Assembly: GCA_964631175.1 (NCBI GenBank)
Contig: CAZVWH010000001.1
Location: 32,952 to 96,951 of the forward strand
Source: an uncultured Pirellulales bacterium
Lineage (GTDB): Bacteria > Planctomycetota > Phycisphaerae > Sedimentisphaerales > Anaerobacaceae
DNA length: 64,000 bases
Direction: 5' to 3'
This document shows, in pieces, positions 34,910-59,889 of this stretch. Within the stretch, counting starts at the first letter, position 1. Each line of letters begins with the position of its first letter. The notes beneath the pieces were generated by a model. It worked only from the letters and a program-made list of their open reading frames with translations. It ran no database searches and was not told where the DNA came from. Both the position numbers and the translations under genes were made by a program.

Positions 34910-35050
34910 ATTTTTGGCATCCTTCGACTCCCTCGCTGTTGCTCGGTCGCTCAGGATACTTCTCCTCGTTCACCTCAACGCTTCATATCGAACCACTTGT
35001 ACTGAGCGAGTAAGCCCTTTGTGAAAACGAAGGGCGAACGAGTCGAAGTA

Positions 35051-35121
35051 CTGGGGAACCAGGATTCGGACCTGGACTAACTGATCCAGAGTCAGTCGTG
35101 CTACCGTTACACTATTCCCCA
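35051..35121 (-). tRNA. tRNA-Gln (anticodon CUG)
   Basis: Hand-folded cloverleaf. Acceptor UGGGGAA/UUCCCCA with U1:A72 and discriminator G73 (typical of bacterial tRNA-Gln). D arm GUGU-AACGGUA-GCAC. Anticodon arm ACUGA-CUCUGGA-UCAGU. T arm CCAGG-UCCGAAU-CCUGG. No encoded CCA. Confidence 0.85.
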
Positions 35122-35595
35122 ATAATTAGTCCAAAACAAAAAACTTATGATTATAGCTTCCAGAGATATTCTTTCTGGGTATAGCAACACCTCTTGTTAT
35201 TTTCAGCTTATTCTATATAAAAAATAGTCTGATATTGCAAGATTATTAAGAAAAAGCTGTACTACCGGGCAATAATTTGGTATAAATAAAATGTGTAAAT
35301 TTGTGGTTTTGCTTTTCAGCGAATCAAAATAATGTGTTTTTTTGTATAGATCAGCTCTGCTGAAAGTGAAGGAAGGAGGTAGTAAATCAGGCCAGTTACA
35401 AATTCTTTTTTCAGCGTAAAATTGAGTGCTTGTCCGGCGAAGCCCCCGGCTCTGCATAGCCCTTCACCGAAGCAGGATGGCCATAGTCAGATAGATTTAA
35501 CCTTTTTAGAAATCGGTATTCTTATTCTAAGTTGTTGTTTTGGTGTCTAACTAAATTACCATTATTATCATTTTTGCTTTTGAAGGAGGATTATT

Positions 35596-38466
35596 ATGTG
35601 TAAGAAATTGTGTTTTTTAATCCTTTCTGTTTTGATGCTAAGTCTGGCGTGCACCAGTTACGGTGAAGTTGTGATAGGCAACTTTGAGCAGCAAATGGAC
35701 AGATGGACATCATGCACCTGGAGTCCTCCCGGGAATCCTACTTTTGATTACGGCACGACCGGGGTCACATTAGGCAGCTACAGTCTCAAGGCGGTGCAGC
35801 CGACCGATGGATTCAATTGGTTTTTGATAAATACCAATGTGAGTGGTAATGACTTCAGGGCTAACAACATCATCTCGATAGACATCACGCGGTTAGCTAA
35901 CGAGTGGACACGTGGAACCGGAGACCATGGGTGCAACCTCGACTTGCGTTTCCAAGACACCTCTAACTATAACTTGGTGGGCTTAGGCAACAGTGGTGAT
36001 TGGGATAGTAATGACCTCAACGCTAACGATACGATGACAGCTACCTGGGACTACACTGTATATAAAGATCAACCTGACGTGCTGTCCCCTGACGCTACGT
36101 CGGTACAGATTGTAATCGCCACCAATACCAATGGTTACACCGGCAACGGGACCTGGTACATTGACAATATAAAACTACTGGCCAGCCGTCACGAGCAACC
36201 GCGAAACGGTGCGTGGGGTATGGAGCTTAATCCCACCCTTAAGTGGGATGAAGCATCACCGTCTGACACATTCGATGTATATGTCGGCACCGATTTTAAC
36301 AATGTGAACGACGCCGACAGAACAGACCAAACGGGCTTGCTGTTTTATAGCGAGAACCAGGATCCTAACAACTATCCTTTAAGCGGAACCACTAATGGTA
36401 CGACTTATTACTGGCGGATCGATGATGTTGTTGACGGCACCCCCGTGAAAGGTACTGTCTGGCACTTTACGACTTTTCTTCTGGGCGCAAAAAGCACTGT
36501 TATCGGCGACTGGGAACAGCAGATGGACGGATGGGTTGACGCAGAGCCCGATGACGCCAATATGGTGTTAGGCTACAGTACTGTCGGGGCCACGTTGAAC
36601 AACTACAGCCTCACGGTGGAAGCTCCGATAGAATGGTATGAGACTGTGCAAATCCCGATTAACGAAACTGGTTTTACTCACCAACTTATGGCTAACAACC
36701 GATTCTCATTGGACGTGACATGGGATACTACCATGTTTGGAGGGGATATCGAAAGTATTGTTATCGATGGCGACGGGATTGGAGGGTTGCAGTTAGCACC
36801 TATAAGTGAAACGATTATTGGTTCTGCTGGTGGCTTGGATACGACGACGTTTACATGGGACTACTCTGCTGTTGATTTTAGTTTGCTTCCTGCTGAACCT
36901 GAGAACCTGACGTTGAGTATCGCCACAATGGCAGATGACAGAGGTCTTTATCACTTCGACAATGCGCGATTGTACAGCTCGAAAGTTGCCTCTCTCCCAA
37001 TGCCGGGCGACAATGAGGCAGAAGCACAGAGGGAACCGACACTTAGCTGGAGTCCTGGGGAAGGTGCCGGCACACACGACGTATATTTCGGCACCGATTA
37101 TGACAAAGTAAACGACGCCAGCAAAGCAGACCACCCTGACTTGCTATTTTACGGTGAGGACCGGGACTACGACGCTAACAATATTGATATCACAGGTGAG
37201 CTCGGATATCCTTTGTCATTTGGCACAACCTACTACTGGAGGATTGACGAGGTCAATGAAACCGTCTGGAAAGGTACTGTCTGGAGCTTTACGGTAGGCT
37301 GGTATCTTGTTATGGACGATTTCGAGGACTACAATGACTATGAGCTTAACAGGATATTCGATGTGTGGTCAGACTACGCCGTGAATAATACTGGTATGAC
37401 TGTGGGATATCTTGATCCTCCGTTTGCCGAGAAGAGCATAGTTCACGGTGGTTCTCAAGCAATGTACATGACTTACGACAACGATGGTACTGTAAACGAG
37501 GACACCAATTTCGAACAGAGCGGGACATTGCTTTACTCAGAAGCCGAGCGCCAGTGGGCGGACCCGCAGGACTGGACCGCAAATGAAGCTGAGTCCTTAA
37601 CGCTGTGGTTCAGAGGCTATCGAGAACCTGTTGGTAGCTTCGCAGAAGGCCCGCCAATCACGATGACTGCTGCCGGTATGGACATCTGGGATACGGCTGA
37701 CGAGTTCCACTTCGCCTATAAGCAGCTCTCCGGTCTTGGGAGCATAACAGCTAAGATCCTCAGCGTTAGTAATACCGACCCATGGGCCAAAGCAGGTGTA
37801 ATGATTCGCCAGTCACTTGAGCCCAGCTCTCCACATGCTTCAGTAGTCATCACGCCTGAGAGTGGAGTTTCCTTCCAACGCCGAGCTGCTGTGAGTGCCG
37901 TTAGCGAGCAAACTCAGCAAACCGATATCACCGCTCCACAATGGGTCAGATTAATCCGCGCCGGCAACTCCTTTATAGGGCAGTATTCAGCTAACGGAGC
38001 TACATGGACAACACTGGGTACTGTGAATATGCCTATGCTTTCGGAGGTCTATGCAGGCTTATGTCTGACCGGCCATAACGTTAATGCAACGTGCACAGCT
38101 GAACTCTCTAATGTTGCCATATCCGGCACGGTTACAGGCGGCTGGCAGTCGCAGGACATTGGTATAGAAAGTAACATTGCCGAGCCGATGTATGTAGTTC
38201 TGGCTGATAGCGCCGGTAATAGTATTGTGGTCACACACCCGGATCCAGGCGTATCGGCTACACCAAGCTGGACGGAGTGGAATATCCCCTTTGCTGATTT
38301 TACCAACGTGAATATGCAGGCTGTCAAGCGTATGGTCATAGGCGTCGGCGATCAGTCAAATACGCTGCAACCCGGTGGTGCAGGTACAATGTTCATTGAT
38401 GATATCAGGCTGTATCTTCCGACACCTGAACCTGAACAAGAGCCGGATGAAGGTGGAGACGGTTGA
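35596..38466 (+). CDS. Array paralog A: secreted protein with 2 CBM-like sandwiches, 2 TYYWRIDE repeats and the shared C-terminal nested module
   Basis: GAAGGAGGA RBS, signal peptide MCKKLCFLILSVLMLSLA. Two VIG[ND][FW]EQQMD[RG]W domains. FDVYVGT..TYYWRIDDV and HDVYFGT..TYYWRIDEV. C-module DDFEDYND..ITMTAAGMDIWD..WAKAGVMIRQS..FIDDIRLYLP. Confidence 0.9.
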   Translation: MCKKLCFLILSVLMLSLACTSYGEVVIGNFEQQMDRWTSCTWSPPGNPTFDYGTTGVTLGSYSLKAVQPTDGFNWFLINTNVSGNDFRANNIISIDITRLANEWTRGTGDHGCNLDLRFQDTSNYNLVGLGNSGDWDSNDLNANDTMTATWDYTVYKDQPDVLSPDATSVQIVIATNTNGYTGNGTWYIDNIKLLASRHEQPRNGAWGMELNPTLKWDEASPSDTFDVYVGTDFNNVNDADRTDQTGLLFYSENQDPNNYPLSGTTNGTTYYWRIDDVVDGTPVKGTVWHFTTFLLGAKSTVIGDWEQQMDGWVDAEPDDANMVLGYSTVGATLNNYSLTVEAPIEWYETVQIPINETGFTHQLMANNRFSLDVTWDTTMFGGDIESIVIDGDGIGGLQLAPISETIIGSAGGLDTTTFTWDYSAVDFSLLPAEPENLTLSIATMADDRGLYHFDNARLYSSKVASLPMPGDNEAEAQREPTLSWSPGEGAGTHDVYFGTDYDKVNDASKADHPDLLFYGEDRDYDANNIDITGELGYPLSFGTTYYWRIDEVNETVWKGTVWSFTVGWYLVMDDFEDYNDYELNRIFDVWSDYAVNNTGMTVGYLDPPFAEKSIVHGGSQAMYMTYDNDGTVNEDTNFEQSGTLLYSEAERQWADPQDWTANEAESLTLWFRGYREPVGSFAEGPPITMTAAGMDIWDTADEFHFAYKQLSGLGSITAKILSVSNTDPWAKAGVMIRQSLEPSSPHASVVITPESGVSFQRRAAVSAVSEQTQQTDITAPQWVRLIRAGNSFIGQYSANGATWTTLGTVNMPMLSEVYAGLCLTGHNVNATCTAELSNVAISGTVTGGWQSQDIGIESNIAEPMYVVLADSAGNSIVVTHPDPGVSATPSWTEWNIPFADFTNVNMQAVKRMVIGVGDQSNTLQPGGAGTMFIDDIRLYLPTPEPEQEPDEGGDG

Positions 38467-38617
38467 TCCTGGCAATGAGGGTCTGGTACAATGCATGTGA
38501 GAATAATACTGAGGATACCTCTGGCAACAGTACAGTGGTCGCACATCCGGACATGGGTGCAGCAACCACAGACATCTGGAACCAGTGGAATATTCCCTCG
38601 GCAGATTTTGTTAACAT
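38467..38617 (+). pseudogene. Decayed relic of a paralog C-terminus (copy 1)
   Basis: Frame of ORF 38463 reads EDTSGNSTVVAHPDMGAATTDIWNQWNIPSADFVNM, aligning with family ADSAGNS.VV.HPDP.A....WT.WNIPFADF.NVNM. It has no start or N-terminal part and ends in a hairpin. Confidence 0.7.
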
Positions 38618-38650
38618 GGCGGTCCCACGGGCAAAGCCCGTGGGACCGCC
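38618..38650 (+). terminator. Perfect 15-bp stem hairpin between paralogs A and B
   Basis: GGCGGTCCCACGGGC-AAA-GCCCGTGGGACCGCC followed by ATTT. The weak U-tract means it could be a terminator or an RNA-stability/REP hairpin. Confidence 0.55.
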
Positions 38651-38786
38651 ATTTGCATTCATCATCCGACGCCACAGTTCGGCTATGGAAAGCAGCTTCC
38701 ACGGCTAAAACCCCTGGTTTTCTGCGAAAGATGTTAGATTAAAGTACTGTTATTTGTTAGTGTAGCTTTTTTGAAGGAGGAATATT

Positions 38787-41030
38787 ATGTGTAGAAAGTC
38801 GAAGTTCCACTATGGGGGGCAAAGATCCGGTCCGGCATACAGACGGAACGGATTGATTTATATGATTTCCTTTGTATTGGTGCTGGGCCTCGCTGGAGCA
38901 AGCGCAGCGGAAGAAATTGACCCCTCACTTGTCGGCTGGTGGAAGCTCAATGAGGATTTTGGCTCCACCGCTATTGATTGGTCCGGTCATGACAATCATG
39001 GCAGCCTCGTGGGTGACCCGCAATGGGTGTCCGGGTACATAGGCGGCACACTGGATTTTGACGGTGATGGCGACTACATCGACTGCGGATATGATCCGAT
39101 CTTTGATATCACCGACGAGATTACGCTCGCTGCATGGGTAAATATTAGGTCGATCTCCGTTCAGTGGATGGCTATCGTCGCTAAGGGTGAATACGCTTGG
39201 AGACTTAGTAACGATGATAGCGACCCGAGGTTTCACTTTGGTATCACTATCTGGTCGGACGATAATCCTTCAGTCAATGGAAGCACTGCGGTCGGCTACG
39301 ACGAATGGCATCACGTCGCCGGAATGTATGATGGTTCAAACATCAACTTATATTTGGACGGAGTGCTTGACGTGAACATTTCCAATGATACTGGCATAGG
39401 TACCAATACCGAAAACCTACTTATTGGCGAAAACCCAGAAGCAGCAGAACGCTACTGGGATGGCTTCATCGACGATGTCCGGGTTTACAATGTAGCACTG
39501 ACGGAAGATGAGATAGCGGCAGTGATGTCATATATGGGAGATGACCCCTCACTTGCCTGGGGAGCGAATCCGATTAACGGTCAAACAGATGTACTACAGG
39601 ATGTGGTTCTTAGATGGAAAGCCGGAATCTATACCGAGACGCATAATGTGTACTTAGGAACAGTTTTCGATGATGTCAACGAGGCGAGTACAGACGATAC
39701 GCGGGGTGTTCTTCTCAGCCAAAACCTGGCCGAATCCACTTTTGACCCTCCCGTCTATCTGGATTTTGATCAGACCTACTACTGGCGGATCGATGAGGTT
39801 AATGACACAGAGCCAAATAGTCCCTGGAAAGGTAACATCTGGAGTTTTACAGTTGCCAACTTCACTACAGTGGACGACTTTGAAGACTATAATGACGCTA
39901 CTAACAGGATATACGATACGTGGGCGGACTATGTCGTGAATAACACCGGCATGACTGTGGGTCACTTTAATCCTCCGTATGCCGAGCAAACTATAGTTCA
40001 CACCGGCTTTCAAGCCATGTACATGCGTTACGACAACGATGGTACCGTCAACGAGGGGACCGACTACGAACAAAGCGGAACACTGTTTTATTCTGAAGTT
40101 GAACGCCAGTGGGAGACTCCGCAGGATTGGACCGCGAACGACATTGAGTCCTTAACGCTGTGGTTCAGAGGCTTACCTGCATCTGTTGGCAGCTTCGTCC
40201 CTGAGGGACAAGCAGAAGGGCCACCAATCACGATGACCGCTAATGGTAAGGACATCTACGATACGGCTGACGAGTTCCACTTTGCCTATAAACGGTTTTC
40301 TGGTGCTGGTAGCATAACAGCCAAGGTTCTCAGCGTTAGCAATACACACCTATGGGCCAAGGCGGGTGTAATGATTCGCCAGTCGCTTGAGCCCGGCTCT
40401 CTGCATGCTGCGATGGTAGTCACGCCTGGCAGTGGAGTTTCCTTCCAACGCCGAACAGCCGTGAACGGCGGCAGCGAAGAAACTCAACAAGAAGATATCA
40501 CAGCGCCACATTGGGTCAGATTAATCCGCGCCGGCAACACCCTAATCGGACAGCATTCTGATAACGGAGCTACCTGGACAACACTGGGTACTGTGAATAT
40601 ACCTATGCTTCTGGAAGTTTATGCAGGCTTATGCCTGACCAGCCATAACGTTGATGAAACGTGCACAGCCGAATTCTCTGATGTTACCATATCCGGCATG
40701 GTTACAGGCGACTGGCTGTCACAGGACATCGGTATAGAGAGTAACATTGCCGAGCCGATGTATGTAGCTCTGGCCGATAGTGCCGGTAATAGTGCATTGG
40801 TCAACTACCCAGACCCGGCTGCATCTCTCATAGGAAGCTGGACGGAGTGGAATATCCCCTTTGCTGATTTTACCGACGTGAATATACAGGCTATCAAGCG
40901 CTTGGCCATAGGTATCGGCGATCAGTCAAATATGCTGCAACCCGGTGGTGCAGGTACAATGTTCATTGACGATATCAGGCTGTATCTTCCAACACCCGAA
41001 CCGGAACCAGAGCCAAGTGGAGCCAATTGA
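38787..41030 (+). CDS. Array paralog B: LamG + 1 TYYWRIDE repeat + shared C-terminal module
   Basis: Cassette TTTTTTGAAGGAGGAATATTATGTG, long n-region signal peptide. LamG WWKLNEDFGSTAIDWSGHDNHGSLVGDPQWVSGYIGGTLDFDG..IDDVRVYNVAL. HNVYLGT..TYYWRIDEVN. C-module. Confidence 0.9.
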   Translation: MCRKSKFHYGGQRSGPAYRRNGLIYMISFVLVLGLAGASAAEEIDPSLVGWWKLNEDFGSTAIDWSGHDNHGSLVGDPQWVSGYIGGTLDFDGDGDYIDCGYDPIFDITDEITLAAWVNIRSISVQWMAIVAKGEYAWRLSNDDSDPRFHFGITIWSDDNPSVNGSTAVGYDEWHHVAGMYDGSNINLYLDGVLDVNISNDTGIGTNTENLLIGENPEAAERYWDGFIDDVRVYNVALTEDEIAAVMSYMGDDPSLAWGANPINGQTDVLQDVVLRWKAGIYTETHNVYLGTVFDDVNEASTDDTRGVLLSQNLAESTFDPPVYLDFDQTYYWRIDEVNDTEPNSPWKGNIWSFTVANFTTVDDFEDYNDATNRIYDTWADYVVNNTGMTVGHFNPPYAEQTIVHTGFQAMYMRYDNDGTVNEGTDYEQSGTLFYSEVERQWETPQDWTANDIESLTLWFRGLPASVGSFVPEGQAEGPPITMTANGKDIYDTADEFHFAYKRFSGAGSITAKVLSVSNTHLWAKAGVMIRQSLEPGSLHAAMVVTPGSGVSFQRRTAVNGGSEETQQEDITAPHWVRLIRAGNTLIGQHSDNGATWTTLGTVNIPMLLEVYAGLCLTSHNVDETCTAEFSDVTISGMVTGDWLSQDIGIESNIAEPMYVALADSAGNSALVNYPDPAASLIGSWTEWNIPFADFTDVNIQAIKRLAIGIGDQSNMLQPGGAGTMFIDDIRLYLPTPEPEPEPSGAN

Positions 41031-41051
41031 TTTTTTTGAAGGAGGAATATT

Positions 41052-44000
41052 ATGTGCAAGAAATTGATTTATCTGATGTTGTGTGTCTTAGTTCTTGGGG
41101 TGACCGGCTCAGCTTCAGCCGAACTGATTGCGCACTGGCCCTTTGACGAGGGCTCAGGAACCACGTTGAATGATGTCGTCGGCGGCAATAACGGCACCTT
41201 GCAGGGAGATCCCACGTGGATTGTCGGCCCGGTCAATGGTGCCCTTGACTTTGACGGCAATGAAGACCTTGTGACTATCCCAAATAGCTCGGCACTGCAA
41301 TTGCGTAGTACTGGGCAATATACGGTGGCGGTCTGGGTGAATGTCGTGAACCCGGACGGCGGACTCATTTTATTCAGTGGCGAGGGGTGTGTTGCATGGG
41401 CAAACTGGTACCTGGGTGTGACGGAAGGTGAGCCCGATGCCCGTAATCTTGGTGGTCCCCCAAAGCAGGAGGGCAGCTTGGTCTTCGGTGTCCGCACGGT
41501 AAATTGGGGTACTGTTGCTGGCTATGTCGCAGCTCCATTCGTACCCGAAACGTGGATGCATGTGGCTGCCACGTATGACGGTGTCACACTGAGAATATAC
41601 ATAGATGGTCAAGAAGTAGACAGCGCCGAGGAAGTCCCTCTGCCGCGTGACAACACCAATATGCCCTTAAATATCGCCGGCGATAACGGCTGTAGCGCTA
41701 TCGGACGCAACTGGTTCACGGGCAAGATTGACGACTTGCGGATTTATGACGTGGCGTTATGGGAGGACGAAATACAAGATATAATGACGCCTGCCAGTGC
41801 CTGGAAACCGAATCCGGCTGATAATGGCTCTGTGGCAGGTATTGACCCTATTCTGAGCTGGAATCCCGGAAAGCAGGCCGTAACCCATAATGTCTATCTG
41901 GGAACAACAATGGAGGACGTCAGTGCAGCCACCGCCGATAATCATCCGAATGTCGAGGTCAGCCTGGGTCAGAGCGAAAACACGTACAGCCCAGCCGAGT
42001 CCCTGGTGTACGGACAAACCTATTACTGGCGAGTGGATGAGGCCAATGATGTTCAAGTTTGGCGGGGTGATGTCTGGAGCTTCCTGGTTCAGCCATTGAC
42101 TGCCTATATGCCGACGCCAGCGAACGGAGCCAAATACCTGGATCCTGATATCGTTCTTTCCTGGAGCCCGGGCTTGGGGGCAGAGTCACATGATGTGTAC
42201 TTAGGTACCGACCCGAATAATCTGACACTGGAATCGACAGCTCAAACAACAACCACGTACGAGCCGGAGACATTGAATTATGACACGACTTATTACTGGC
42301 GTATCGATGAGTTTGATGGTTCGGACACGCATGTGGGTGATGTCTGGAGTTTCTCAATCCTGCCGGATATACCTATCAGAGATCCCAGCCTTGTGGGTTG
42401 GTGGAAGCTTGATGAGGGCTTGGGTACTCGGGCCGTGGACTGGTCCGGCTATAATAGACATGGCACCATCTACGGCGGTCCAATCTGGGTGGACGGTTAT
42501 GATGGCGGCGCGCTCGAGTTCGACGGCATAAACAACTACGTAGATTTGCCGATTGACTCGCTTATCCCCTCTCTAACCAGTTGCACCATCACAACGTGGG
42601 TCGATTTCTCCAACACAGGTGGTCCTTGGCAGCGCATATTCGGCTTTTTCAACCCCAACGGATTCACTTCTTACATGACCCTGACACCGCGCTCTGGAGA
42701 TAGCGGACCCATGACTTTTGCTATCGTAACCGATTTCGCTAGCCCGTACCCGGGTAATGAGACGGATCAATTAATTGCCCCTTCAACACTTGTAAGCGGC
42801 TGGCATCATGTAGCTGTTGCGATAGATGGACAGAGCGACCCTCACTCTATGCAGCTTTACCTTGACGGTACGGTTGTTGCAGAAGATATAACGGAAACCC
42901 TACCGGCAGACCTCAACGACATCACAAGCAACATGCTTGGCCATACGGTGCACGGCCTTGAAGCATACTTTACCGGGCTATTGGATGATTTCCGCATCTA
43001 CAATTATGCAATGACACAGGATGAGATTACGGATGTGATGCGAATTGACACGCTGCGTGCCTGGAATCCGATTCCATCCAATGGAGCATTAACAGATGTA
43101 GAAAATGTGTTGCCTCTTAGCTGGTCGCCCGGAGATGAGGCTGTACAGCACGATGTGTACTTAGGTACAAATGCACTGGCTGTAGAAAGTGCTGATGCAT
43201 CTGATACCACAGGCATATATCGAGGCCAGCAGGATGCCAACAGTTACATGCCACCTGAAGGTGTAGAACCTAACCAGGTTTACTACTGGCGTATCGATGA
43301 GATCAATACCGATGCGATGGTAAACAAAGGTAAAATCTGGGCCTTTACAGTACTGCCATATCTTATTGTGGATGACTTTGAAAGCTATGACGATGTCGAT
43401 AATAGAATATACAATACCTGGGCAGATTACTACGTGAATAATACCGGTATGACTGTAGGGCACATTGAGCCTTCGTTTGCTGAGCTTGGTATTGTTCACA
43501 GCGGCTCACAATCAATGTATATGCACTACGACAATGATGGCACTGTAAATGAGGGCACTAGCTATGAACAGAGCGGAACACTCACTTTTTCTGAAGCAGA
43601 GCGAACGTGGGCAGATGCACAGGATTGGACCAGAAGAGATGTTGAGTCCTTAACACTGTGGTTCAGAGGCGTACCAGCATCTGTCGGCAGCTTTACAGAA
43701 GGGCCACCGATTACGATGACCGCTGGTGGTGCAGATATCTGGGATCTGGCTGACGAATTCCACTTTGCTTATAAGCAGTTATCCGGCGAAGGCAGCATAA
43801 CAGCGAGAGTAGTCAGCATCAGTAACACTAACGTCTGGGCCAAGGCGGGAGTTATGATCCGCGAGGGACTTTCGCCAGGTTCTGTACATGTTATGATAGT
43901 TGTCACTCCGGGTAGTGGAGTTTCCTTCCAGCGCCGTATTACCATGGACGCTGGTTCAGAGGAAACTACACAAGCAGATATCACCGCTCCACAATGGGTC

Positions 44001-44510
44001 AGACTTAGCCGCAGTGGTAACACATTTACCGGCGAGTATTCTGCTAACGGCTCTAACTGGACAACGCTGGGCTCCATTGATATAGCTATGCTTCCTGATA
44101 CCTACATAGGCTTATGCCTGACCAGCCACAACGTCGATGCGACGTGCACAGCCGAATTCTCTAATGTTACCACCGACGGCACAGGCCAGTGGCAATCACA
44201 GGATATCGGCATAGAAAGCAATATTGGTGAGCAGCTTTACGTAGTATTACAGGATAGCGCCGGCAATAGTGCGGTTGTAACTAATCCCGATCCCGCTGCA
44301 ACGATTATAGACACTTGGACACCTTGGAATATTCCGTTTACAGACTTTGCTAGCGTGAATATGCAGGCTATCAAGAAGATGGCTATCGGCGTCGGCGATA
44401 GGGCCAATACACAACCTGGTGGTGCAGGTAATTTGTACATTGATGATATTGGGCTGTATCTTCCGACACCTGAACCTGAACAAGAGCCGGATGAAGGTGG
44501 AGACGGTTGA
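41052..44510 (+). CDS. Array paralog C: LamG + 2 repeats + LamG + 1 repeat + shared C-terminal module
   Basis: Starts 21 nt after B with the same cassette. Two LamG domains (HWPFDEGSGTTLND.., WWKLDEGLGTRAVDWSGYNRHG..) and three H[ND]VYLGT..YYWR[VI]DE repeats. Confidence 0.9.
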   Translation: MCKKLIYLMLCVLVLGVTGSASAELIAHWPFDEGSGTTLNDVVGGNNGTLQGDPTWIVGPVNGALDFDGNEDLVTIPNSSALQLRSTGQYTVAVWVNVVNPDGGLILFSGEGCVAWANWYLGVTEGEPDARNLGGPPKQEGSLVFGVRTVNWGTVAGYVAAPFVPETWMHVAATYDGVTLRIYIDGQEVDSAEEVPLPRDNTNMPLNIAGDNGCSAIGRNWFTGKIDDLRIYDVALWEDEIQDIMTPASAWKPNPADNGSVAGIDPILSWNPGKQAVTHNVYLGTTMEDVSAATADNHPNVEVSLGQSENTYSPAESLVYGQTYYWRVDEANDVQVWRGDVWSFLVQPLTAYMPTPANGAKYLDPDIVLSWSPGLGAESHDVYLGTDPNNLTLESTAQTTTTYEPETLNYDTTYYWRIDEFDGSDTHVGDVWSFSILPDIPIRDPSLVGWWKLDEGLGTRAVDWSGYNRHGTIYGGPIWVDGYDGGALEFDGINNYVDLPIDSLIPSLTSCTITTWVDFSNTGGPWQRIFGFFNPNGFTSYMTLTPRSGDSGPMTFAIVTDFASPYPGNETDQLIAPSTLVSGWHHVAVAIDGQSDPHSMQLYLDGTVVAEDITETLPADLNDITSNMLGHTVHGLEAYFTGLLDDFRIYNYAMTQDEITDVMRIDTLRAWNPIPSNGALTDVENVLPLSWSPGDEAVQHDVYLGTNALAVESADASDTTGIYRGQQDANSYMPPEGVEPNQVYYWRIDEINTDAMVNKGKIWAFTVLPYLIVDDFESYDDVDNRIYNTWADYYVNNTGMTVGHIEPSFAELGIVHSGSQSMYMHYDNDGTVNEGTSYEQSGTLTFSEAERTWADAQDWTRRDVESLTLWFRGVPASVGSFTEGPPITMTAGGADIWDLADEFHFAYKQLSGEGSITARVVSISNTNVWAKAGVMIREGLSPGSVHVMIVVTPGSGVSFQRRITMDAGSEETTQADITAPQWVRLSRSGNTFTGEYSANGSNWTTLGSIDIAMLPDTYIGLCLTSHNVDATCTAEFSNVTTDGTGQWQSQDIGIESNIGEQLYVVLQDSAGNSAVVTNPDPAATIIDTWTPWNIPFTDFASVNMQAIKKMAIGVGDRANTQPGGAGNLYIDDIGLYLPTPEPEQEPDEGGDG

Positions 44511-44661
44511 TCCTGGCAATGAGGGTCTGGTACAATGCATGTGAGAATAATACTGAGGATACCTCTGGCAACAGTACAGTGGTCGCACATCCGGACATGG
44601 GTGCAGCAACCACAGACATCTGGAACCAGTGGAATATTCCCTCGGCAGATTTTGTTAACAT
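44511..44661 (+). pseudogene. Decayed relic of a paralog C-terminus (copy 2, identical to 38467-38617)
   Basis: Lies inside the 739-bp perfect repeat, offset 6044 bp from copy 1. Confidence 0.7.
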
Positions 44662-44694
44662 GGCGGTCCCACGGGCAAAGCCCGTGGGACCGCC
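44662..44694 (+). terminator. Perfect 15-bp stem hairpin between paralogs C and D (identical to 38618-38650)
   Basis: Same sequence as copy 1. Confidence 0.55.
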
Positions 44695-44830
44695 ATTTGC
44701 ATTCATCATCCGACGCCACAGTTCGGCTATGGAAAGCAGCTTCCACGGCTAAAACCCCTGGTTTTCTGCGAAAGATGTTAGATTAAAGTACTGTTATTTG
44801 TTAGTGTAGCTTTTTTGAAGGAGGAATATT

Positions 44831-47800
44831 ATGTGTAGAAAGTCGAAGTTCCACTATGGGGGGCAAAGATCCGGTCCGGCATACAGACGGAACGGATTGA
44901 TTTATATGATTTCCTTTGTATTGGTGCTGGGCCTCGCTGGAGCAAGCGCAGCGGAAGAAATTGACCCCTCACTTGTCGGCTGGTGGAAGCTCAATGAGGA
45001 TTTTGGCTCCACCGCTATTGATTGGTCCGGTCATGACAATCATGGCAGCCTCGTGGGTGACCCGCAATGGGTGTCCGGGTACATAGGCGGCACACTGGAT
45101 TTTGACGGTGATGGCGACTACATCGACTGCGGATATGATCCGATCTTTGATATCACCGACGAGATTACGCTCGCTGCATGGGTAAATATCAGGTCGATCC
45201 CCGTTCAGTGGGTATCTATCGTCACTAAGGGTGAATACGCTTGGAGACTTAGTAACGTGGAGAGCGACCCGAGGTTTCACTTTGGTATCACTATCTGGTC
45301 GGACGCTAACCCTTCAGTCAATGGAAGCACTGCGGTCGGCTACAACGAGTGGCATCACGTTGCCGGAACGCATGATGGTTCAGAGCTCAACCTATATTTG
45401 GACGGAGTGCCTGACGGGACACTCTCAAGTACTACTGCCATAGGTACCAATACCGCAAACCTATTTATTGGCGAAAACCCAGAGGCAGCAGGACGCTATT
45501 GGGACGGCCTCATCGACGATGTGCGTCTTTACAACCGGGCGTTGTCACAGACCGAGATAAATGAGCTGATGCCTCTGCAGCCCAGGGCCACGGCGCCCGA
45601 GCCGTATGACAAGGCAATACTTGTCACAACAGAGGTCACGCTTAGCTGGATCCCCGGAGATGGTGCTGCTTCACACTACTTATATTTTGGCGAGAACTTT
45701 GAAGATGTACAAAACGGAACCGAAGGCACCGACAAAGGCTTAACCAATCTGAACAATTACTCACCTCAGAGCTTGGAAACCGGCAAGACCTATTACTGGC
45801 GGGTCGATGAGGTCGAAGCCGATGGCACTACTACCCACACAGGCGATGTTTGGAGCTTTACTATTCCCTCGAAGTACGCCTATAATCCCGTCCCCCCCGA
45901 TAGTGCTGAATTTATAGACCCAAATGTCACGCTGAGCTGGGCTGCAGGTACAGGCTCGATTATACATTTTGTGTATTTCGGCGATAACCTCGAAGATGTG
46001 CAAGCCGGCACCGGCGGCACAAATAAAGGTTCTGTTACTACAGATCCGAATTATATCCCCGGCCCGCTCGAATTTGCGAAGACTTATTATTGGCGGATCG
46101 ACGAGTTCGATGGCATGAGAAGATATACAGGCGATGTCTGGAGTTTTACTACTGTCGGTCCCACTAATGGTGCAAAGGGCCAGTACTATAACAACGTAGA
46201 TTTGACAGGCCAACCAGTACTCACCCGTATAGACCCAAAAATAGATTTTACCTGGGGTGAGGATTCTCCGCATGATTTGGTTAATGCAAATAACTTCTCG
46301 GTCAGGTGGACCGCTGAGTTAGATGTGCCATTTACCGAGACTTATACCTTCTATACCTTAAGCGATGATTGCGTCCGATTGTGGATAGATGGAGAACTGA
46401 TTATTGACAACTGGACTGTTGTAAATGCTTGGGCTATAGAAGATAAGGGCGTTATCGACCTTGTTGCCGGGCAGGTATTCCTTAAGATGGAGTTCTTTGA
46501 TAGCGACGGAGCAGCGTCGGTACAGTTAAGATGGCAAAGTCCATCCTTACCACGACAAATTATTTCGCCTAGTGCATTATCACAACCACTAAGCGCCTCA
46601 GGTGGAAGACCAGATAACGGCGCCACAGAAATCAGACAGATACCTACGCTTCGATGGACTGCGGGAGATCAAGCTGCTCAGCATGATGTGTACTTCGGCA
46701 TTGATGAGACGGCTGTGAACAATGCTGATACAACAACACCAGATATCTATCGCGGCCGGCAAGACCTTGAAAATACCACATATATCCCCACCGAAGCTCC
46801 TCTTCTGTGGGGCCAGACTTACTACTGGCGAATAGATGAGGTCGAGGCTGATGGCGTGACGATAAATAAAGGCCGTGTCTGGAGCTTCACGGTAGCTGAC
46901 TATGCCGTAGTGGAAGACTTTGAATACTACAACGATGATGATAATAGAATATACCATACGTGGTCAGACTATGCCGTGAATAATACCGGCATGACTGTGG
47001 GGCACTTTGAGCCTCCGTATGCCGAGCAAAGTATAGTTCACGGCGGCTATCAAGCTATGTACATGCATTACGACAACGATGGTACCGTCAACGAGGGTAC
47101 TGCTTATGAACAGAGCGGGACACTCACTTTTTCTGAAGTCGAACGCCAGTGGGACGATCCGCAGGATTGGACCATAAACGGAGTTAACTCCTTAACACTG
47201 TGGTTCAGAGGCACACCGGCGTCTGTCGGCAGCTTTACAGAAGGGCCACCAATCACGATGACCGCTAATGGTACGGATATCTGGGATACGGCTGACGAGT
47301 TCCACTTTGCCTATAAACGGCTTTCCGGTGCTGGGAGCATAACAGCCAAGGTTCTCAGCGTTAGTAATACCAACTCATGGGCCAAGGCGGGTGTGATGAT
47401 TCGCCAGTCGCTGGAGCCCGGCTCCCTGCATGCTGCGATGGTCGTCACGCCTGGTAGTGGAGTTTCTTTCCAACGCCGAATGGCTGTGAACGGTGGCAGC
47501 GAGGAAACTTCACAAGACGACATCACCGCTCCACAATGGGTCAGATTAATCCGCGCCGGCAACAGCTTTATCGGACAATATTCAGCTAACGGAGCTACCT
47601 GGACAACACTGGAGACTGTGAATATGCCTATCTTGCTGGATGTTTATGTAGGCTTATGCCTGACCAGCCATAACGTTGATGAAACGTGCACAGCCGAATT
47701 CTCTGATGTTACCATATCCGGCACGGTTACAGGCGACTGGCTGTCGCAGGACATCGGCATTAAAAGTAACATTGCCGAGCCGATGTATGTAGTTCTGGCC

Positions 47801-48052
47801 GATAGCGCCGATAATAGTGCGTTGGTCAACCACCCAGATCCGGCTGCATCCATCATAGGAATCTGGACACAGTGGAATATTCCCTTTGCTGATTTTGCTG
47901 GCGTCAATATGCAGGCTATCAAGAAGATATCCATTGGTGTCGGTGATAGAGCGAGTACACAGCCCGGCACCGCCGGTGATTTGTACATTGATGATATTGG
48001 GCTGTATCTTCCAACACCCGAACCAGAACCAGAGCCAAGTGGAGCCAGTTGA
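44831..48052 (+). CDS. Array paralog D: LamG + 2 repeats + PA14 + 1 repeat + shared C-terminal module
   Basis: The first ~120 codons are identical to B. PA14 segment: GAKGQYYNNVDLTGQPVLTRIDPKIDFTWGEDSP..NNFSVRWTAEL..YTFYTLSDDCVRLWIDGELIIDNW. Confidence 0.9.
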   Translation: MCRKSKFHYGGQRSGPAYRRNGLIYMISFVLVLGLAGASAAEEIDPSLVGWWKLNEDFGSTAIDWSGHDNHGSLVGDPQWVSGYIGGTLDFDGDGDYIDCGYDPIFDITDEITLAAWVNIRSIPVQWVSIVTKGEYAWRLSNVESDPRFHFGITIWSDANPSVNGSTAVGYNEWHHVAGTHDGSELNLYLDGVPDGTLSSTTAIGTNTANLFIGENPEAAGRYWDGLIDDVRLYNRALSQTEINELMPLQPRATAPEPYDKAILVTTEVTLSWIPGDGAASHYLYFGENFEDVQNGTEGTDKGLTNLNNYSPQSLETGKTYYWRVDEVEADGTTTHTGDVWSFTIPSKYAYNPVPPDSAEFIDPNVTLSWAAGTGSIIHFVYFGDNLEDVQAGTGGTNKGSVTTDPNYIPGPLEFAKTYYWRIDEFDGMRRYTGDVWSFTTVGPTNGAKGQYYNNVDLTGQPVLTRIDPKIDFTWGEDSPHDLVNANNFSVRWTAELDVPFTETYTFYTLSDDCVRLWIDGELIIDNWTVVNAWAIEDKGVIDLVAGQVFLKMEFFDSDGAASVQLRWQSPSLPRQIISPSALSQPLSASGGRPDNGATEIRQIPTLRWTAGDQAAQHDVYFGIDETAVNNADTTTPDIYRGRQDLENTTYIPTEAPLLWGQTYYWRIDEVEADGVTINKGRVWSFTVADYAVVEDFEYYNDDDNRIYHTWSDYAVNNTGMTVGHFEPPYAEQSIVHGGYQAMYMHYDNDGTVNEGTAYEQSGTLTFSEVERQWDDPQDWTINGVNSLTLWFRGTPASVGSFTEGPPITMTANGTDIWDTADEFHFAYKRLSGAGSITAKVLSVSNTNSWAKAGVMIRQSLEPGSLHAAMVVTPGSGVSFQRRMAVNGGSEETSQDDITAPQWVRLIRAGNSFIGQYSANGATWTTLETVNMPILLDVYVGLCLTSHNVDETCTAEFSDVTISGTVTGDWLSQDIGIKSNIAEPMYVVLADSADNSALVNHPDPAASIIGIWTQWNIPFADFAGVNMQAIKKISIGVGDRASTQPGTAGDLYIDDIGLYLPTPEPEPEPSGAS
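46169..46544 (+). other. PA14 domain-coding segment of paralog D
   Basis: G.YY.N..L.G.PV..R.D..I.F.WG...P......FSVRW.. ..Y.F....DD..RLW.... is the classic PA14 signature. Confidence 0.8.
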
Positions 48053-48073
48053 CTTTTTTGAAGGAGGAATATT

Positions 48074-51000
48074 ATGTGTGGAAAGTCGAAGTTCCGTTAT
48101 GAGGGGGCGAAGATTCGCTATGGCGGATTGATTCCTGTCCTGAGCCGTGTCGAAGGATATCTAATATCTTTTGTTTTACTGCTCGGGCTGGCCGCGGGCG
48201 TGGCAACAGCAGACATCGACACAGGTCTGGTCGGGCACTGGAAGTTAGATGAGGGCTCCGGTGATACTGCCTATGATTCAAGTGGAAATGGCAACTACGG
48301 TATACTTGAAGGTGACCCACAGTGGGTAGCTGGCTGGATAGGCGGCGCTTTGGAATTTGACGGAGTTGATGATTACGTTGATTGTGGAGATGGTAGTAGC
48401 TTAGATATTAATGATGTAGTTACAATTGCAACCTGGGTAAAAACAAATGATAGTGGTGGTGGTGAGTGGAACCCCTACGTGCACAAAGGCGACCACAGTT
48501 ATGGATTGAAGCACGGCGAGCGTAACGCCGTAGAATTTGTTATTTACGATGGAACCTGGTACACGACTGAATATTCTGTAGATGCTTCGTTTAATGACGA
48601 ATGGCACCATCTGGTTGGAACTTATGACGGAAGTATGCTTAGACTTTACGTCGATGGCATATTAAAAGTTACTTCTGCGCACACAGGATCTATAGACAGC
48701 CAGCCTACGTACCCTATCTATATAGGAAGCAATTCTGAGGAAACTAGCCGCCTCTACGAAGGCAAGATAGACGAAGCCCGCATTTACAACCGCGCGTTGC
48801 CAGGAGCCGATATTGTGTGGCTGTTTACTGGGAAGCCACCGACAAAGGCTCTTAATCCCATCCCCCTAAATGATAGCGTGGTTGAGCAAACTACGCCGAC
48901 TCTTACCTGGGTGGCTGGAGTGTATGCCGCCTCGCACGATGTGTATTTAAGCGACAGTTTTGCCAAGGTAAATGCTGCTACCAGCAGCAGTCCAATGGGC
49001 CCCGGTGAAGTTTACAAAGCACGCAACGATGCTAATAGTTTTACGGTCGAGAATCTAACTGAAGGCGTGACTTATTACTGGCGAGCCGATGAGGTAAATG
49101 ACCTGCAACCCGGTAGTCCGTGGAGAGGCGATATCTGGAGCTTTACGATTGCCTCGAAGTCTGCCTTCCAACCCATTCCGGGCAATGGCTCTCTGTTTGT
49201 TGACCCAAATGTCACGCTAAGCTGGACTGCAGGTACAGGTTCGGTTATACATTTCTTTTATTTCGGTGATAACCTTGAAGATGTGCAAGCCGGCACCGGC
49301 GGCACAAGTAAAGGTACTGTTGGTGAACTGAATTATCACCCCGGCCTGCTCGAACGTGAGAAGACTTATTATTGGAGAGTAGATGAGTTCGATGGCATGA
49401 GAAGACATACAGGCAATGTCTGGAGCTTTACAACTGCTCGTCCTGGCGGAGGCCTGAAAGGGTCGTATTATAACGGGATAGCCTTTGAGCAACTGGTGCT
49501 GGAGCGCATAGACCCTCAGATCAACTTTGACTGGGGCAATGACTCACCGGCTCCGGGTGTCAACACCGATGCTTTCTCAGTTATATGGGCCGGGGAGTTA
49601 GAGATACCGTTTTCTGGCATCTGGACCTTCTATACCAATATCAACGACGGCGTGCGTCTATGGGTAAATAACGAACTGATTGTTGAGAACTGGGCCGACC
49701 GCTACTCGGCCACCGAGAACTGGGGCGACCTAATTGAACTTGTCGCCGGGAAATGTGACCTTAAGATGGAGTATTATGAAAACTGGGAGATTGCAACAGC
49801 ACAACTGCTCTGGGAAGGCCCCAAAACGCCAAAGCAATTGATTCCACAGGCGGCATTCTCGCCGACATTAAGGGCCAGCAACCCGAACCCATATGATGGT
49901 GCGGTAGCTGTAAAGCAGACACCTACTCTTCAGTGGACTGCGGGAGATAACGCAGCCCATCACGAAGTGTACTTCGGTGATGATCAGACTACTGTAGAAA
50001 ACGCCCACACAACAACAATAGGTATCTACCATGGCCAACAGGAGCTCGATCAAACCAAGTACACTCCCATCGAAGCGCCTCTCGAATGGAATAAGACTTA
50101 TTACTGGCGAATAGATGAGGTCGAGGCTGATGGCGTGACGATAAATAAAAGCCTTGTCTGGAGCTTCACGGTAGCTGACTATGTCGTGGTGGAGGACTTT
50201 GAAGACTACAACGATTTCGACAATAGGATATTCGATGTGTGGGCAGACTACCCTGTGAATAATACCGGCATGACTGTGGGCCACTTTGATCTTCCTTTTG
50301 CGGAGCGAAGGATAGTTCACAATGGCTTTCAATCCATGTACATGCTTTACGACAACGATGGTACGGTGAACGAGGGTACCAACTATGAACAGAGCGGTAC
50401 ACTGTTTTATTCTGAAGCCGAACGAGAGTGGGCCGATGCCCAGGATTGGACCAGAGACGGTGTTAACTCTTTAACGCTGTGGTTCAGAGGCATATCGGCA
50501 TCTGTTGGCAGCTTCGCCCCTCAGGGACAAGCAGAAGGGCCACCAATCACGATGACCGCTAATGGTACGGATATCTGGGGAAATTCTGACCAGTTCCACT
50601 TTGCCTATAAGAAGCTCTCTGGCGAGGGGAGCATAACAGCGAAGGTAGTCAGCGTTAGTAACACCGACCCCTGGGCCAAGGTGGGTGTAATGATTCGCCA
50701 GTCGCTGGATCCCGGTTCCGTAAATACTGCCATAGTCATCACACCTGAGAATGGAGTTTCCTTCCAGCGTCGGCCCCTCATAGATGCTGGTAGTGAAGAC
50801 ACCACGATAGAGGGGATCACCGCTCCACACTGGGTGAGATTGACCCGCAGCGGGAACACCTTTATAGGGCAGTATTCAGCTAACGGAGCTACCTGGACAA
50901 CACTGGACTCTGTGAATATGCCTATCTTGCTGGATGTTTATGTAGGCTTATGCCTGACCAGCCATAACGTCGATGCAACGTGCACAGCCGAATTCTCCAA

Positions 51001-51331
51001 CGTTACTATGACCGGCACGGTTACAGACCCCGATCAAGCCGGGGGTTGGCTGTCGCAGGACATTGGTATAGAGAGTAACATTGCCGAGCCGATGTATGTA
51101 GTTCTGGCCGATAGCGCCGGCAACAGTGCAACAGCCAAACATCCTGATCCTGCTGCAACGATTATAGACACTTGGACACCTTGGAATATTCCGTTCACAG
51201 ACTTTGCTAGCGTGAATATGCAGGCTATCAAGAAGATGGCTATTGGCGTCGGCGATAGGGCCAATACACAACCTGGTGGTGCAGGTGATTTGTACATTGA
51301 TGATATTGGGCTGATGCTGCCTGCGGAATAG
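48074..51331 (+). CDS. Array paralog E: LamG + 2 repeats + PA14 + 1 repeat + shared C-terminal module
   Basis: Starts 21 nt after D with the same cassette. The N-region contains IPVLSRVEGY, encoded by a REP-like core. Ends IDDIGLMLPAE without the PEPEP tail. Confidence 0.9.
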   Translation: MCGKSKFRYEGAKIRYGGLIPVLSRVEGYLISFVLLLGLAAGVATADIDTGLVGHWKLDEGSGDTAYDSSGNGNYGILEGDPQWVAGWIGGALEFDGVDDYVDCGDGSSLDINDVVTIATWVKTNDSGGGEWNPYVHKGDHSYGLKHGERNAVEFVIYDGTWYTTEYSVDASFNDEWHHLVGTYDGSMLRLYVDGILKVTSAHTGSIDSQPTYPIYIGSNSEETSRLYEGKIDEARIYNRALPGADIVWLFTGKPPTKALNPIPLNDSVVEQTTPTLTWVAGVYAASHDVYLSDSFAKVNAATSSSPMGPGEVYKARNDANSFTVENLTEGVTYYWRADEVNDLQPGSPWRGDIWSFTIASKSAFQPIPGNGSLFVDPNVTLSWTAGTGSVIHFFYFGDNLEDVQAGTGGTSKGTVGELNYHPGLLEREKTYYWRVDEFDGMRRHTGNVWSFTTARPGGGLKGSYYNGIAFEQLVLERIDPQINFDWGNDSPAPGVNTDAFSVIWAGELEIPFSGIWTFYTNINDGVRLWVNNELIVENWADRYSATENWGDLIELVAGKCDLKMEYYENWEIATAQLLWEGPKTPKQLIPQAAFSPTLRASNPNPYDGAVAVKQTPTLQWTAGDNAAHHEVYFGDDQTTVENAHTTTIGIYHGQQELDQTKYTPIEAPLEWNKTYYWRIDEVEADGVTINKSLVWSFTVADYVVVEDFEDYNDFDNRIFDVWADYPVNNTGMTVGHFDLPFAERRIVHNGFQSMYMLYDNDGTVNEGTNYEQSGTLFYSEAEREWADAQDWTRDGVNSLTLWFRGISASVGSFAPQGQAEGPPITMTANGTDIWGNSDQFHFAYKKLSGEGSITAKVVSVSNTDPWAKVGVMIRQSLDPGSVNTAIVITPENGVSFQRRPLIDAGSEDTTIEGITAPHWVRLTRSGNTFIGQYSANGATWTTLDSVNMPILLDVYVGLCLTSHNVDATCTAEFSNVTMTGTVTDPDQAGGWLSQDIGIESNIAEPMYVVLADSAGNSATAKHPDPAATIIDTWTPWNIPFTDFASVNMQAIKKMAIGVGDRANTQPGGAGDLYIDDIGLMLPAE
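49451..49822 (+). other. PA14 domain-coding segment of paralog E
   Basis: GLKGSYYNGIAFEQLVLERIDPQINFDWGNDSPAPGVNTDAFSVIWAGEL..WTFYTNINDGVRLWVNNELIVENW. Confidence 0.8.
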
Positions 51332-51528
51332 TGGCTGGCGGCTCCCCTAAGGGGCAAAACCGCAGAGAACTGAGCATGGCTCAAATTAAAGTGCGATTTC
51401 GGGGCCTATACTAATTGGTTTGGTATAGGCCTCGATTGCTTATATAAGTGGCCTTGCCAAACCGCTCCCCCGCCGCAAAGCGGTAGCGAACGAAAAAAAG
51501 GTAAGCTCCATTGCTGCTTAACTGCCTT

Positions 51529-52917: not shown

Positions 52918-52978
52918 TCTCGATCCTCGTCTTTCGCTTCTCAATGCTCGTCGAGTATCGAGCATCCAGAATCAAGTA

Positions 52979-57649: not shown

Positions 57650-57952
57650 ATTTTTCAAATTCCCCGATTGGCCACTGTACCCTAAAAATCCTCGAATAAA
57701 TTAAGGGCTAAATATTCAACTACCTTAGGCAAATCTAACAGGTTCTATAAAAATAGAAACTGTCTTGTAATAATATACTCTGATTTTCAGAGTTCAGAAT
57801 GAAAATTGCTTTAATAAACAATATAAGAATAATAGATAATATCCGCAAATATTCTAATAATCGTATATGGGCGCAAAAAAAACACCATTAAATGAGAGAA
57901 TAAGTGAACTAAAGCCCGGAGTGCCTAAAGTGCCTAAATTTGGAGTCGGTTT

Positions 57953-58031
57953 TAACTTTAGCTCACTTTAGGCACTTTAGCCCACTTTAGACACTTTAGC
58001 TCACTTTAGGCACTTTAGCTCACTTTAGGCA
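57953..58031. repeat. Tandem CACTTTAG(G/C) repeat (9-10 bp units, 19-bp super-unit x ~4) abutting the glnA stop codon
   Basis: CTCACTTTAGGCACTTTAG / CCCACTTTAGACACTTTAG / CTCACTTTAGGCACTTTAG / CTCACTTTAGGCAC. Inverted copies GTGCCTAAAGTGCCTAAA at 57921-57938. Confidence 0.85.
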
Positions 58032-59444: not shown

Positions 59445-59470
59445 TATTAAGCTCCTTTCAAGAACCAAAA

Positions 59471-59520: not shown

Positions 59521-59525
59521 TCTTA

Positions 59526-59867: not shown

Positions 59868-59889
59868 TTTAGCTTTCCTTCATCAAGAG

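Follow-up and report, generated by a model that had tools for sequence, protein, structure and literature searches.

Five tandem genes for predicted exported, lectin-like proteins that share a modeled domain-in-domain C-terminal module in a Sedimentisphaerales planctomycete

The 64,000-nt stretch of DNA analyzed here (the window; contig CAZVWH010000001.1 of an uncultured planctomycete) contains five consecutive genes, designated A to E, along with a partial relative, F, located upstream. We interpret the products of A-E, with a probability of roughly 0.6, as Sec-exported, non-catalytic, multivalent glycan-binding proteins of a planctomycete of the Phycisphaerae/Sedimentisphaerales; the nearest named homologs of glnA from the window are found in metagenome-assembled genomes (MAGs) of these groups at ∼90% identity, which confirms that the host is a member of the Planctomycetes-Verrucomicrobia-Chlamydiae group. 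The array represents, at a single locus, a very large and widespread family that has no characterized member. The new elements are the modeled domain-in-domain C-terminal module (C-module), the size of the family, its conserved start cassette, and the documented exchange of segments. Every building block belongs to a binding-type fold that is already known, and neither a new kind of system nor a new mechanism is implied. Large secreted proteins with laminin G (LamG), PA14, and carbohydrate-binding module (CBM) domains are common in genomes of the Planctomycetes-Verrucomicrobia-Chlamydiae group.

All six open reading frames (ORFs) are on the plus strand, and their coordinates (Table 1) exactly match those of a preliminary description of this DNA, which had reported a five-gene array with a sixth relative. 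That description had also named a tandem arrangement arising during assembly as one of the findings that would undo it. Mis-joined or duplicated repeats in a metagenome assembly could generate a false tandem order or copy number, and the window does possess a 751-nt near-exact repeat with copies 6 kb apart; this repeat is only 95% identical in other assemblies, one assembly may carry a consensus error, and many database members of the family end at contig ends. We nevertheless consider an artefact very unlikely, and take the array as real, because five contigs from five different Joint Genome Institute (JGI) samples are collinear with the stretches of the window that they cover (within 38074-61331), with 99.7-99.97% identity and zero gaps; two of the five span the end of A followed by B, C, D, and E. 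Gene calls identical to the E product exist on at least 20 public-assembly contigs. Furthermore, the paralogs are 71-83% identical in the shared C-module and differ in architecture, which means that they cannot be collapsed copies of one gene, and tandem sets of two or three copies also occur in 19 of 78 loci, in other MAGs. The remaining doubt concerns only the near-identical tract.

The N-terminal halves of the proteins are assembled from a small number of domain types. Laminin_G_3 (PF13385, gathering threshold 27.6 bits) matched B (104.7 bits), C (147.8 bits, two stretches), D (113.1 bits), E (93.9 bits), and F (48.5 bits), whereas PA14 (PF07691, 24 bits) matched D (90.6 bits) and E (71.1 bits); the LamG domains of B-E and F and the PA14 domains of D and E, the latter also named in the preliminary description, are well above the Pfam cut-offs. 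No Laminin_G_3 match was found by Pfam in A, and no PA14 match in A, B, C, or F. Protein A instead contains two domains, X1 and X2, that are paralogous to each other and recur in five proteins of other MAGs; the architecture of A is also present at loci L001, L020, L024, L011, and L037. The preliminary label of CBM-like sandwiches for these domains could not be verified, as X1 and X2 had no Pfam match even at E ≤ 1 and the X1-X2 region had no PDB sequence match. When the X-domain profile was compared by hhalign with the profile of the outer domain described below, the probability was 7.9% and the alignment covered the last strand only.

A unit of ∼95 aa that bears a TYYWR motif is present in 13 copies when F is included, one of which is always directly ahead of the C-terminal module. 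It yielded weak signals of the fibronectin type III (FN3) kind: Pur_ac_phosph_N at E 2.5e-5, which is below the cut-off (25.2 versus 30 bits), Big_5 at E 0.033, and a weak match to titin FN3 (E 0.005) in which TYYWR was aligned with the YxFRV-type motif of FN3. The unit is probably a divergent FN3-like spacer. According to Pfam, proteins A-F have no recognizable catalytic, transporter, or regulatory domain, which agrees with the earlier statement that no enzyme, transporter, or regulator is encoded within the array; they are built from lectin/CBM-type beta-sandwiches. NCBIfam provided only partial matches far below threshold (TafC and Xyl3A) that reflect the LamG and PA14 domains. In the translation of F, two short Asp/Asn-rich stretches that resemble dockerins or EF-hands, DFNSDCSVDFEDL and DLDANNEINFSDF, were seen within aa 452-771 (31006-31965); the sole database signal was a non-significant EF-hand_1 match over the first of them.

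All five proteins share the C-module, as had been described, although its length is about 370 aa rather than the ∼330 aa first given; identity between copies is 71-83%. An AlphaFold2 model of the C-module, built from 45 sequences (mean predicted local distance difference test score (pLDDT) of 87.8), consists of two beta-sandwiches. When the inner one was compared with the PDB by Foldseek, the best matches were the DUF1349 structures 3MEP and 3O12 (E 1e-8, probability 1.0, template modeling (TM) score on target of 0.69-0.75), followed by non-catalytic C-terminal domains of glycoside hydrolase (GH) family 43 xylosidases and then by other concanavalin A (ConA)-like folds. At the sequence level, the DUF1349 scores of A (22.6 bits), B (26.0 bits), C (24.9 bits), D (31.9 bits), and E (32.3 bits) were all under the Pfam threshold (PF07081, 32.4 bits), and DUF1349 matches were obtained for 27 of 46 relatives at E ≤ 1e-4. 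An outer profile, prepared by removing the central ∼180 residues from the family alignment, matched F 291-453 as a single contiguous domain (E 7e-28) and matched A-E as two halves flanking the inner domain; F is without the DUF1349-like insertion. The modeled outer domain of F (pLDDT 84.2) resembles CBM11, a xanthanase module, CBM27, CBM4, CBM22, and CBM30 (Foldseek TM ∼0.65, E 1e-6 to 1e-5), with TM on query of 0.64-0.67 for 1V0A, 6R3M, 6FHJ, and 1WKY, whereas neither the outer domain nor F 286-452 matched a CBM family of Pfam even at E ≤ 1. Because the outer profile is contiguous in F and split around the inner domain in A-E, the C-module is a domain-in-domain construct, namely a CBM11-like jelly roll that accommodates a DUF1349-like domain with the ConA fold in one of its loops. 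Across 82 related loci, 86 ORFs preserve the order outer-N, inner, outer-C, and seven ORFs are uninterrupted like F. Within the inner domain, certain Arg, Tyr, Asp, and Lys residues are invariant and one His is nearly so.

Searched against PDB sequences, the module profile matched 3MEP only, and marginally (E 0.086), and Foldseek searches of viral structures returned generic ConA-fold matches only. Literature searches on DUF1349 in Planctomycetes, on LamG proteins of Phycisphaerae, and on secreted planctomycete laminin G proteins located nothing on this family, and the listed DUF1349 papers dealt with unrelated subjects, judging by titles and abstracts. As the preliminary description had suspected, therefore, no characterized family covers either the C-terminal module or the whole architecture (Pfam, NCBIfam, PDB, and literature). 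The model places DUF1349 in a structural context, enclosed by a CBM-like fold.

Signal peptides were assessed by visual inspection and hydropathy. The N-termini of A-F contain K/R residues, then a 12-aa hydrophobic stretch (mean Kyte-Doolittle value of 2.4-2.9), and AxA-like or small-residue cleavage motifs; the n-regions of B, D, and E are unusually long and basic. No later segment of A-F reaches transmembrane hydrophobicity. The proteins of the array are very acidic (D+E is 2-3 times K+R), have no canonical lipobox, their N-termini ending in AxA-type sites, and either carry an acidic Pro-rich tail at the C-terminus or end with the module itself. No C-terminal match to the type IX secretion system (T9SS) C-terminal domain, PEP-CTERM, LPXTG, SLH, or dockerin was detected in A-E with Pfam or NCBIfam. 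From their N-termini, export of A-E by Sec is well indicated. The preliminary description had called the proteins extracellular; only the export part of that statement is borne out, since a Sec signal peptide reaches the periplasm of a diderm cell, and a location beyond it would be a further step.

Five mismatch-free copies of the 21-nt cassette TTGAAGGAGGAnTATTATGTG are present in the window, all of them before A-E (zero occurrences are expected from shuffled sequence), so the same initiation cassette reported earlier is exact in five of five cases; no copy precedes F. Of 28 matches to the cassette GAAGGAGGnnTnnTATG at loci of other MAGs, 24 lie ahead of family genes, with M-[CY]-[KR]-K and a signal peptide coming after the cassette. 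Since it is kept ahead of family genes in other MAGs, the cassette is a trait of the family, beyond a by-product of local duplication. The spacing was measured as previously claimed: the B/C and D/E gaps are 21 nt each, and the A/B and C/D gaps, which are 320 nt each and identical in sequence, hold a strong hairpin. Gene callers annotated an 81-codon ORF at 38463-38708 and 44507-44752, overlapping the stop of A and C; it is the relic of a C-module tail ahead of the hairpin, and probably not a gene. This relic is the scar of an earlier deletion. A sigma-70 promoter scan performed no better than with shuffled sequence. We infer transcription as the units A, B-C, and D-E, which would have strong ribosome-binding sites and be separated by hairpin terminators.

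The C-modules of A-E differ by synonymous distances (dS) of 0.35-1.0, with ratios of nonsynonymous to synonymous rates (dN/dS) of 0.19-0.30; the copies are old and under purifying selection. The preliminary picture of a rapidly diversifying repertoire is consequently not supported for the C-module, and architectures of the A and F types are found again in other MAGs, but it holds for the combinations of segments, which bear signs of recombination and gene conversion. The near-identical tract shared by the A/B and C/D junctions (Table 1) is flanked upstream by sequence of 63-77% identity; downstream, identity is 94-95% to ∼39300, then 80-84%, and collapses past ∼39500, where D carries domains that are absent from B. 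At the protein level, aa 1-100 of D are identical to B, and D is B-like for the first 100-250 residues and then adopts the architecture of E. In five other assemblies of the same population (L079-L083), 38 of 751 sites distinguish the two tract copies, and these sites are clustered in patches. Most differences between the window and these assemblies (35 of the 43 in L079) are in short patches inside the duplicated tracts and are densest in two ∼80-nt patches, 38889-38974 and 45061-45133. The differences between samples resemble patchy gene conversion, polymorphic from one population to another, with a consensus artefact in one assembly as the other possible source.

A third sign of exchange is visible when A is compared with its ortholog at L001. 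Over X1-FN3-X2, dS is 0.02 (protein identity 92-100%), compared to 0.38 over the C-module (protein identity 72-78%), and the region of high identity begins exactly at the cassette; therefore, in one lineage a paralogous C-module has taken the place of the original. For X1/X2 of this pair, dN/dS is 1.5-2.0 at a dS of 0.02 with few substitutions, a pattern that is suggestive of positive selection on the X domains of A. The aligned regions are L001 4440-7379, from MAG CAZQKO, and 35578-38527 of the window; the identity between the window and housekeeping genes carried by other contigs of this MAG is only 87-92%, so that the near-identical half-gene suggests either a recent lateral exchange or an error in binning. 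The A-type gene of L001 is solitary, and downstream of it (L001 7441-7891) are 450 nt with 74% identity to the LamG region of B/D that may be the remnant of a lost B-like neighbor. The order GH130-GT1-UGDH-F is syntenic in L015 and L029, where F orthologs adjoin family genes located on the opposite side of F; in L015, two family genes on the opposite strand lie between F and xth. We suggest that the array would have grown by tandem duplication and would have been reshuffled by recombination and gene conversion between paralogs, for which the C-module, the spacer, and the 5' cassette could serve as homology tracts. The locus offers a clean natural example of segment exchange between paralogs that is visible across metagenome samples.

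In an exhaustive search, the module profile matched 25,744 cluster representatives at a cut-off of E ≤ 1e-3, of which 7,447 remained at E ≤ 1e-30; many matches carry the full nested module at the C-terminus. A word-indexed search with the module found more than 1,200 proteins, mostly from Phycisphaerae/Sedimentisphaerales MAGs and mostly truncated at contig ends; database names for the family are "hypothetical", "DUF1349 domain-containing", and "regulation of enolase protein 1 (ConA-like)". A collection of species-representative genomes yielded 375 stretches, with about a dozen or more copies in single MAGs. Giant proteins of 1,300-3,900 aa (P0121-P0133) repeat the inner domain 5-11 times; one of these (P0122 = MCG8698318.1) is from a Bacteroidales MAG, and the domain is widespread beyond Planctomycetota. 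Among 46 diverse members with the full module, the N-terminal partners were nearly all of binding type: LamG (24), PA14 (6), discoidin F5/8-C (4), pentaxin (3), HpiC1-like, CBM9, CBM4_9, and GH115_C domains, along with one Dockerin_1 and one thioredoxin domain. We rejected the notion that the C-module is a generic sorting tag with enzyme passengers, as none of the 46 members has a glycoside hydrolase, lyase, or peptidase domain and only one has a thioredoxin domain.

The surroundings of the array are summarized in Table 1. The GH43, GH5, GH130, and GH99-like neighbors mentioned in the preliminary description do exist; however, they are dispersed, with unrelated genes in between, and relatives do not share this context. 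On three long contigs from other organisms, the family genes are mostly flanked by unrelated housekeeping and transport genes, and no conserved gene neighbors were identified in related contigs except small LamG, CBM4_9, or discoidin genes and, once, a prepilin-type gene. The organization typical of polysaccharide utilization loci or carbohydrate-active enzyme (CAZyme) clusters is not seen: the array is not grouped with co-oriented degradative enzymes, transporters, and a regulator, its context is not conserved elsewhere, and SusC/SusD are absent from the window and from related loci. On a contig of the European Nucleotide Archive (ENA; L086 3215-12201), a short C-module protein is encoded among 1,201-aa LamG, LamG/PEP-CTERM, and prepilin-type (N_methyl) proteins, a neighborhood that may point to a connection with export related to pili or pseudopili. 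An Rfam scan detected only the tRNA. The two GLUG-motif genes of the window belong to a class that is usual in large secreted or adhesin-like proteins.

Table 1. Genes, domains, and other features of the 64-kb window (positions in nt of the window; domain limits in aa; FN3-like, outer, and inner assignments and signal peptides are predictions)
Feature	Position	Strand	Description
Gene A	35596-38466	+	956 aa; signal peptide 1-23; X1 24-198; FN3-like 199-295; X2 296-470; FN3-like 474-570; C-module 573-942 (outer-N 573-675, inner 684-852, outer-C 857-942)
Gene B	38787-41030	+	747 aa; long signal peptide 1-42; LamG ∼45-248; FN3-like 259-357; C-module 362-735
Gene C	41052-44510	+	1152 aa; signal peptide 1-23; LamG 26-245 and 445-665; two FN3-like 252-440; FN3-like 672-768; C-module 773-1138
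Gene D	44831-48052	+	1073 aa; signal peptide and LamG 1-248; two FN3-like 254-445; PA14 446-572; FN3-like 592-690; C-module 694-1061
Gene E	48074-51331	+	1085 aa; signal peptide; LamG ∼55-250; two FN3-like 262-457; PA14 460-592; FN3-like 604-702; C-module 706-1083
Gene F, partial relative	29653-31968	+	771 aa; signal peptide; N-domain without assignment; FN3-like 190-286; uninterrupted outer (CBM11-like) domain 291-453; LamG (Pfam match 651-723)
Initiation cassette of A	35580-35600	+	T-run, GAAGGAGG Shine-Dalgarno, 7-nt spacer, ATG TG
Identical cassette copies	38771-38791, 41036-41056, 44815-44835, 48058-48078	+	starts of B-E
A/B spacer	38467-38786	+	320 nt; identical C/D spacer at 44511-44830; cassette at its end
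C-module tail relic in spacers	38514-38636; second copy 44558-44680		41% identical to outer-C over 41 aa, E 1e-9
17-bp GC-rich hairpin in spacers	38616-38652; second copy 44660-44696		-38.3 kcal/mol, z -7.2
Hairpin after E	51399-51435	+	-29.4 kcal/mol, z -6.3; likely terminator of D-E unit
Near-identical tract	38400-39150 versus 44444-45194	+	3 differences/751 nt; end of A/C, spacer, first ∼120 codons of B/D
GH43	2302-3546		33 kb from array
Two adjacent GLUG-motif genes	10299-13772	-	432 and 707 aa
GH5	21691-22779		13 kb from array
GH130	24947-25882		10 kb from array
GH99-like, weak	32990-34333		1.3 kb upstream of array, other strand, beyond tRNA
tRNA-Gln (CTG)	35050-35122	-	between GH99-like gene and A, in 1.26-kb gap
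gltD-gltB-glnA-glnB(P-II)-amtB	51529-61350	-	complete nitrogen-assimilation cluster directly downstream, convergent with E

In the glycan-binding interpretation, each protein would display two to four beta-sandwich modules of binding type (LamG, PA14, or the X domains of A) on FN3-like spacers, followed by the two-domain C-module. The variable N-terminal modules would recognize different glycans or surfaces, while the conserved C-module would provide a common function, either binding to one shared ligand or attachment to a glycan of the cell's own envelope; together, the set of proteins could capture polysaccharide or stick the cell to particles. Several points weigh against this interpretation. 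A conserved link to glycoside hydrolases, sulfatases, or transporters is lacking both here and in related genomes. We know of no ligand for DUF1349, the CBM-like outer domain, or the X domains, and we therefore infer glycan binding from the fold class; the ConA-like fold also houses enzymes (polysaccharide lyase family 7 (PL7) and GH16), which were among the weaker Foldseek matches. Neither an outer-membrane export route nor an anchor signal was found with Pfam and NCBIfam, so that the proteins may be periplasmic, and the signal peptide calls come from inspection and hydropathy rather than from SignalP. Finally, a consensus error in the assembly of the window could explain the identical tract in part.

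The enzymes just mentioned raise the question of whether the DUF1349-like or LamG domain is itself a new polysaccharide lyase or hydrolase with the ConA fold, in which case the other modules would serve for targeting and the array would encode isozymes. The matches at issue are PL7 alginate/glucuronan lyases and a GH16-type glucanase (E 1e-5 to 1e-4), the inner domain has the invariant Arg, Tyr, Asp, and Lys and near-invariant His mentioned above, and Sedimentisphaerales rank with the anaerobes of sediments and digesters that are richest in CAZymes (PMC11131199). The PL7 alignments were poor, however (TM on query 0.2-0.3, root-mean-square deviation 8-22 Å), and the best fold matches were to DUF1349 structures, which are not enzymes, and to C-terminal domains of GH43 xylosidases, which are not catalytic. 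In addition, no CAZy-type catalytic family of Pfam matched, and the presence of up to 11 inner domains per giant protein is typical of binding repeats. We regard cryptic enzymes as distinctly unlikely.

A role in building the cell surface has a somewhat better chance of being correct, although it too is unlikely. The proteins would then be highly expressed components of the envelope, of an S-layer-like coat, or of a biofilm matrix that bind each other or the cell's own polymers, and the paralogs would provide surface variation (e.g., against phages or grazers) instead of nutrient capture. The strong, conserved Shine-Dalgarno cassette suggests high expression, and the acidity of A-E, the many paralogs per genome with their segment exchange, the absence of a conserved link to degradation genes, and the common occurrence of ConA-like and LamG folds in phage tail and receptor-binding proteins all fit such a role. 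On the other hand, no S-layer, SLH, PEP-CTERM, LPXTG, T9SS, or lipoprotein signal was found, nothing pointed to phase-variable switches (e.g., invertible segments or simple repeats), and the C-module is under purifying selection; the idea also overlaps with the glycan-binding interpretation, as it still relies on lectin-type binding. A further possibility, to which we assign a rather slim chance, is that the nested C-module has the specific task in Phycisphaerae of attaching proteins to the surface (or exporting them across the outer membrane) and is reserved for lectin domains, by analogy to dockerins or T9SS C-terminal domains elsewhere, and that the arrays are recombination-driven contingency loci. 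If so, swaps of N-terminal cassettes onto a common anchor would vary surface stickiness or the handholds available to phages.

We favor multivalent glycan binding over these alternatives. We know of no mechanism by which Sedimentisphaerales seize polysaccharides without Sus-like systems or cellulosomes. Because the family has thousands of members, about a dozen or more copies per genome, strong ribosome-binding sites, and lectin-type domains only, it is a candidate for that missing binding machinery; it could form a major part of it, or of the cell surface.

Several known systems share features with A-E. Surface glycan-binding proteins of the SusE/SusF type in Bacteroidota are likewise multi-domain strings of CBM-like beta-sandwiches without a catalytic domain and are thought to capture polysaccharide at the surface, but they are lipoproteins encoded inside SusC/SusD loci, whereas A-E have no lipobox, SusC/D, or other conserved partner. 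Dockerin-bearing proteins of cellulosomes are also modular secreted proteins of anaerobic polysaccharide degraders, and one of the 46 family members has a Dockerin_1 domain; A-E differ in having no dockerin or cohesin, and no scaffoldin was seen. The beta-sandwich CBMs (CBM11 of Clostridium thermocellum Lic26A-Cel5E, 1V0A; CBM27, CBM4, CBM22, and CBM30) have the same fold as the outer domain modeled for F, yet the outer domain is without a CBM Pfam match or an attached enzyme and is split in A-E by a 180-aa insertion. DUF1349 proteins (PF07081; 3MEP, ECA2234; 3O12, yeast YJL217W; "regulation of enolase protein 1, ConA-like" in COG) have the same ConA-like fold as the inner domain. In contrast to the domain of A-E, which is nested in another beta-sandwich, terminates secreted proteins of 750-1150 aa, and is elsewhere repeated up to 11 times, they are single-domain proteins of ∼180-200 aa with no assigned function. 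Although A-E are without a cell-wall anchor or long repetitive stalk and their nested C-module has no counterpart in adhesins, they resemble the PA14/LamG adhesins and lectins (yeast Flo/Epa and bacterial giant adhesins) in presenting PA14 and LamG domains on repeated Ig/FN3-type spacers and in forming families of recombining paralogs.

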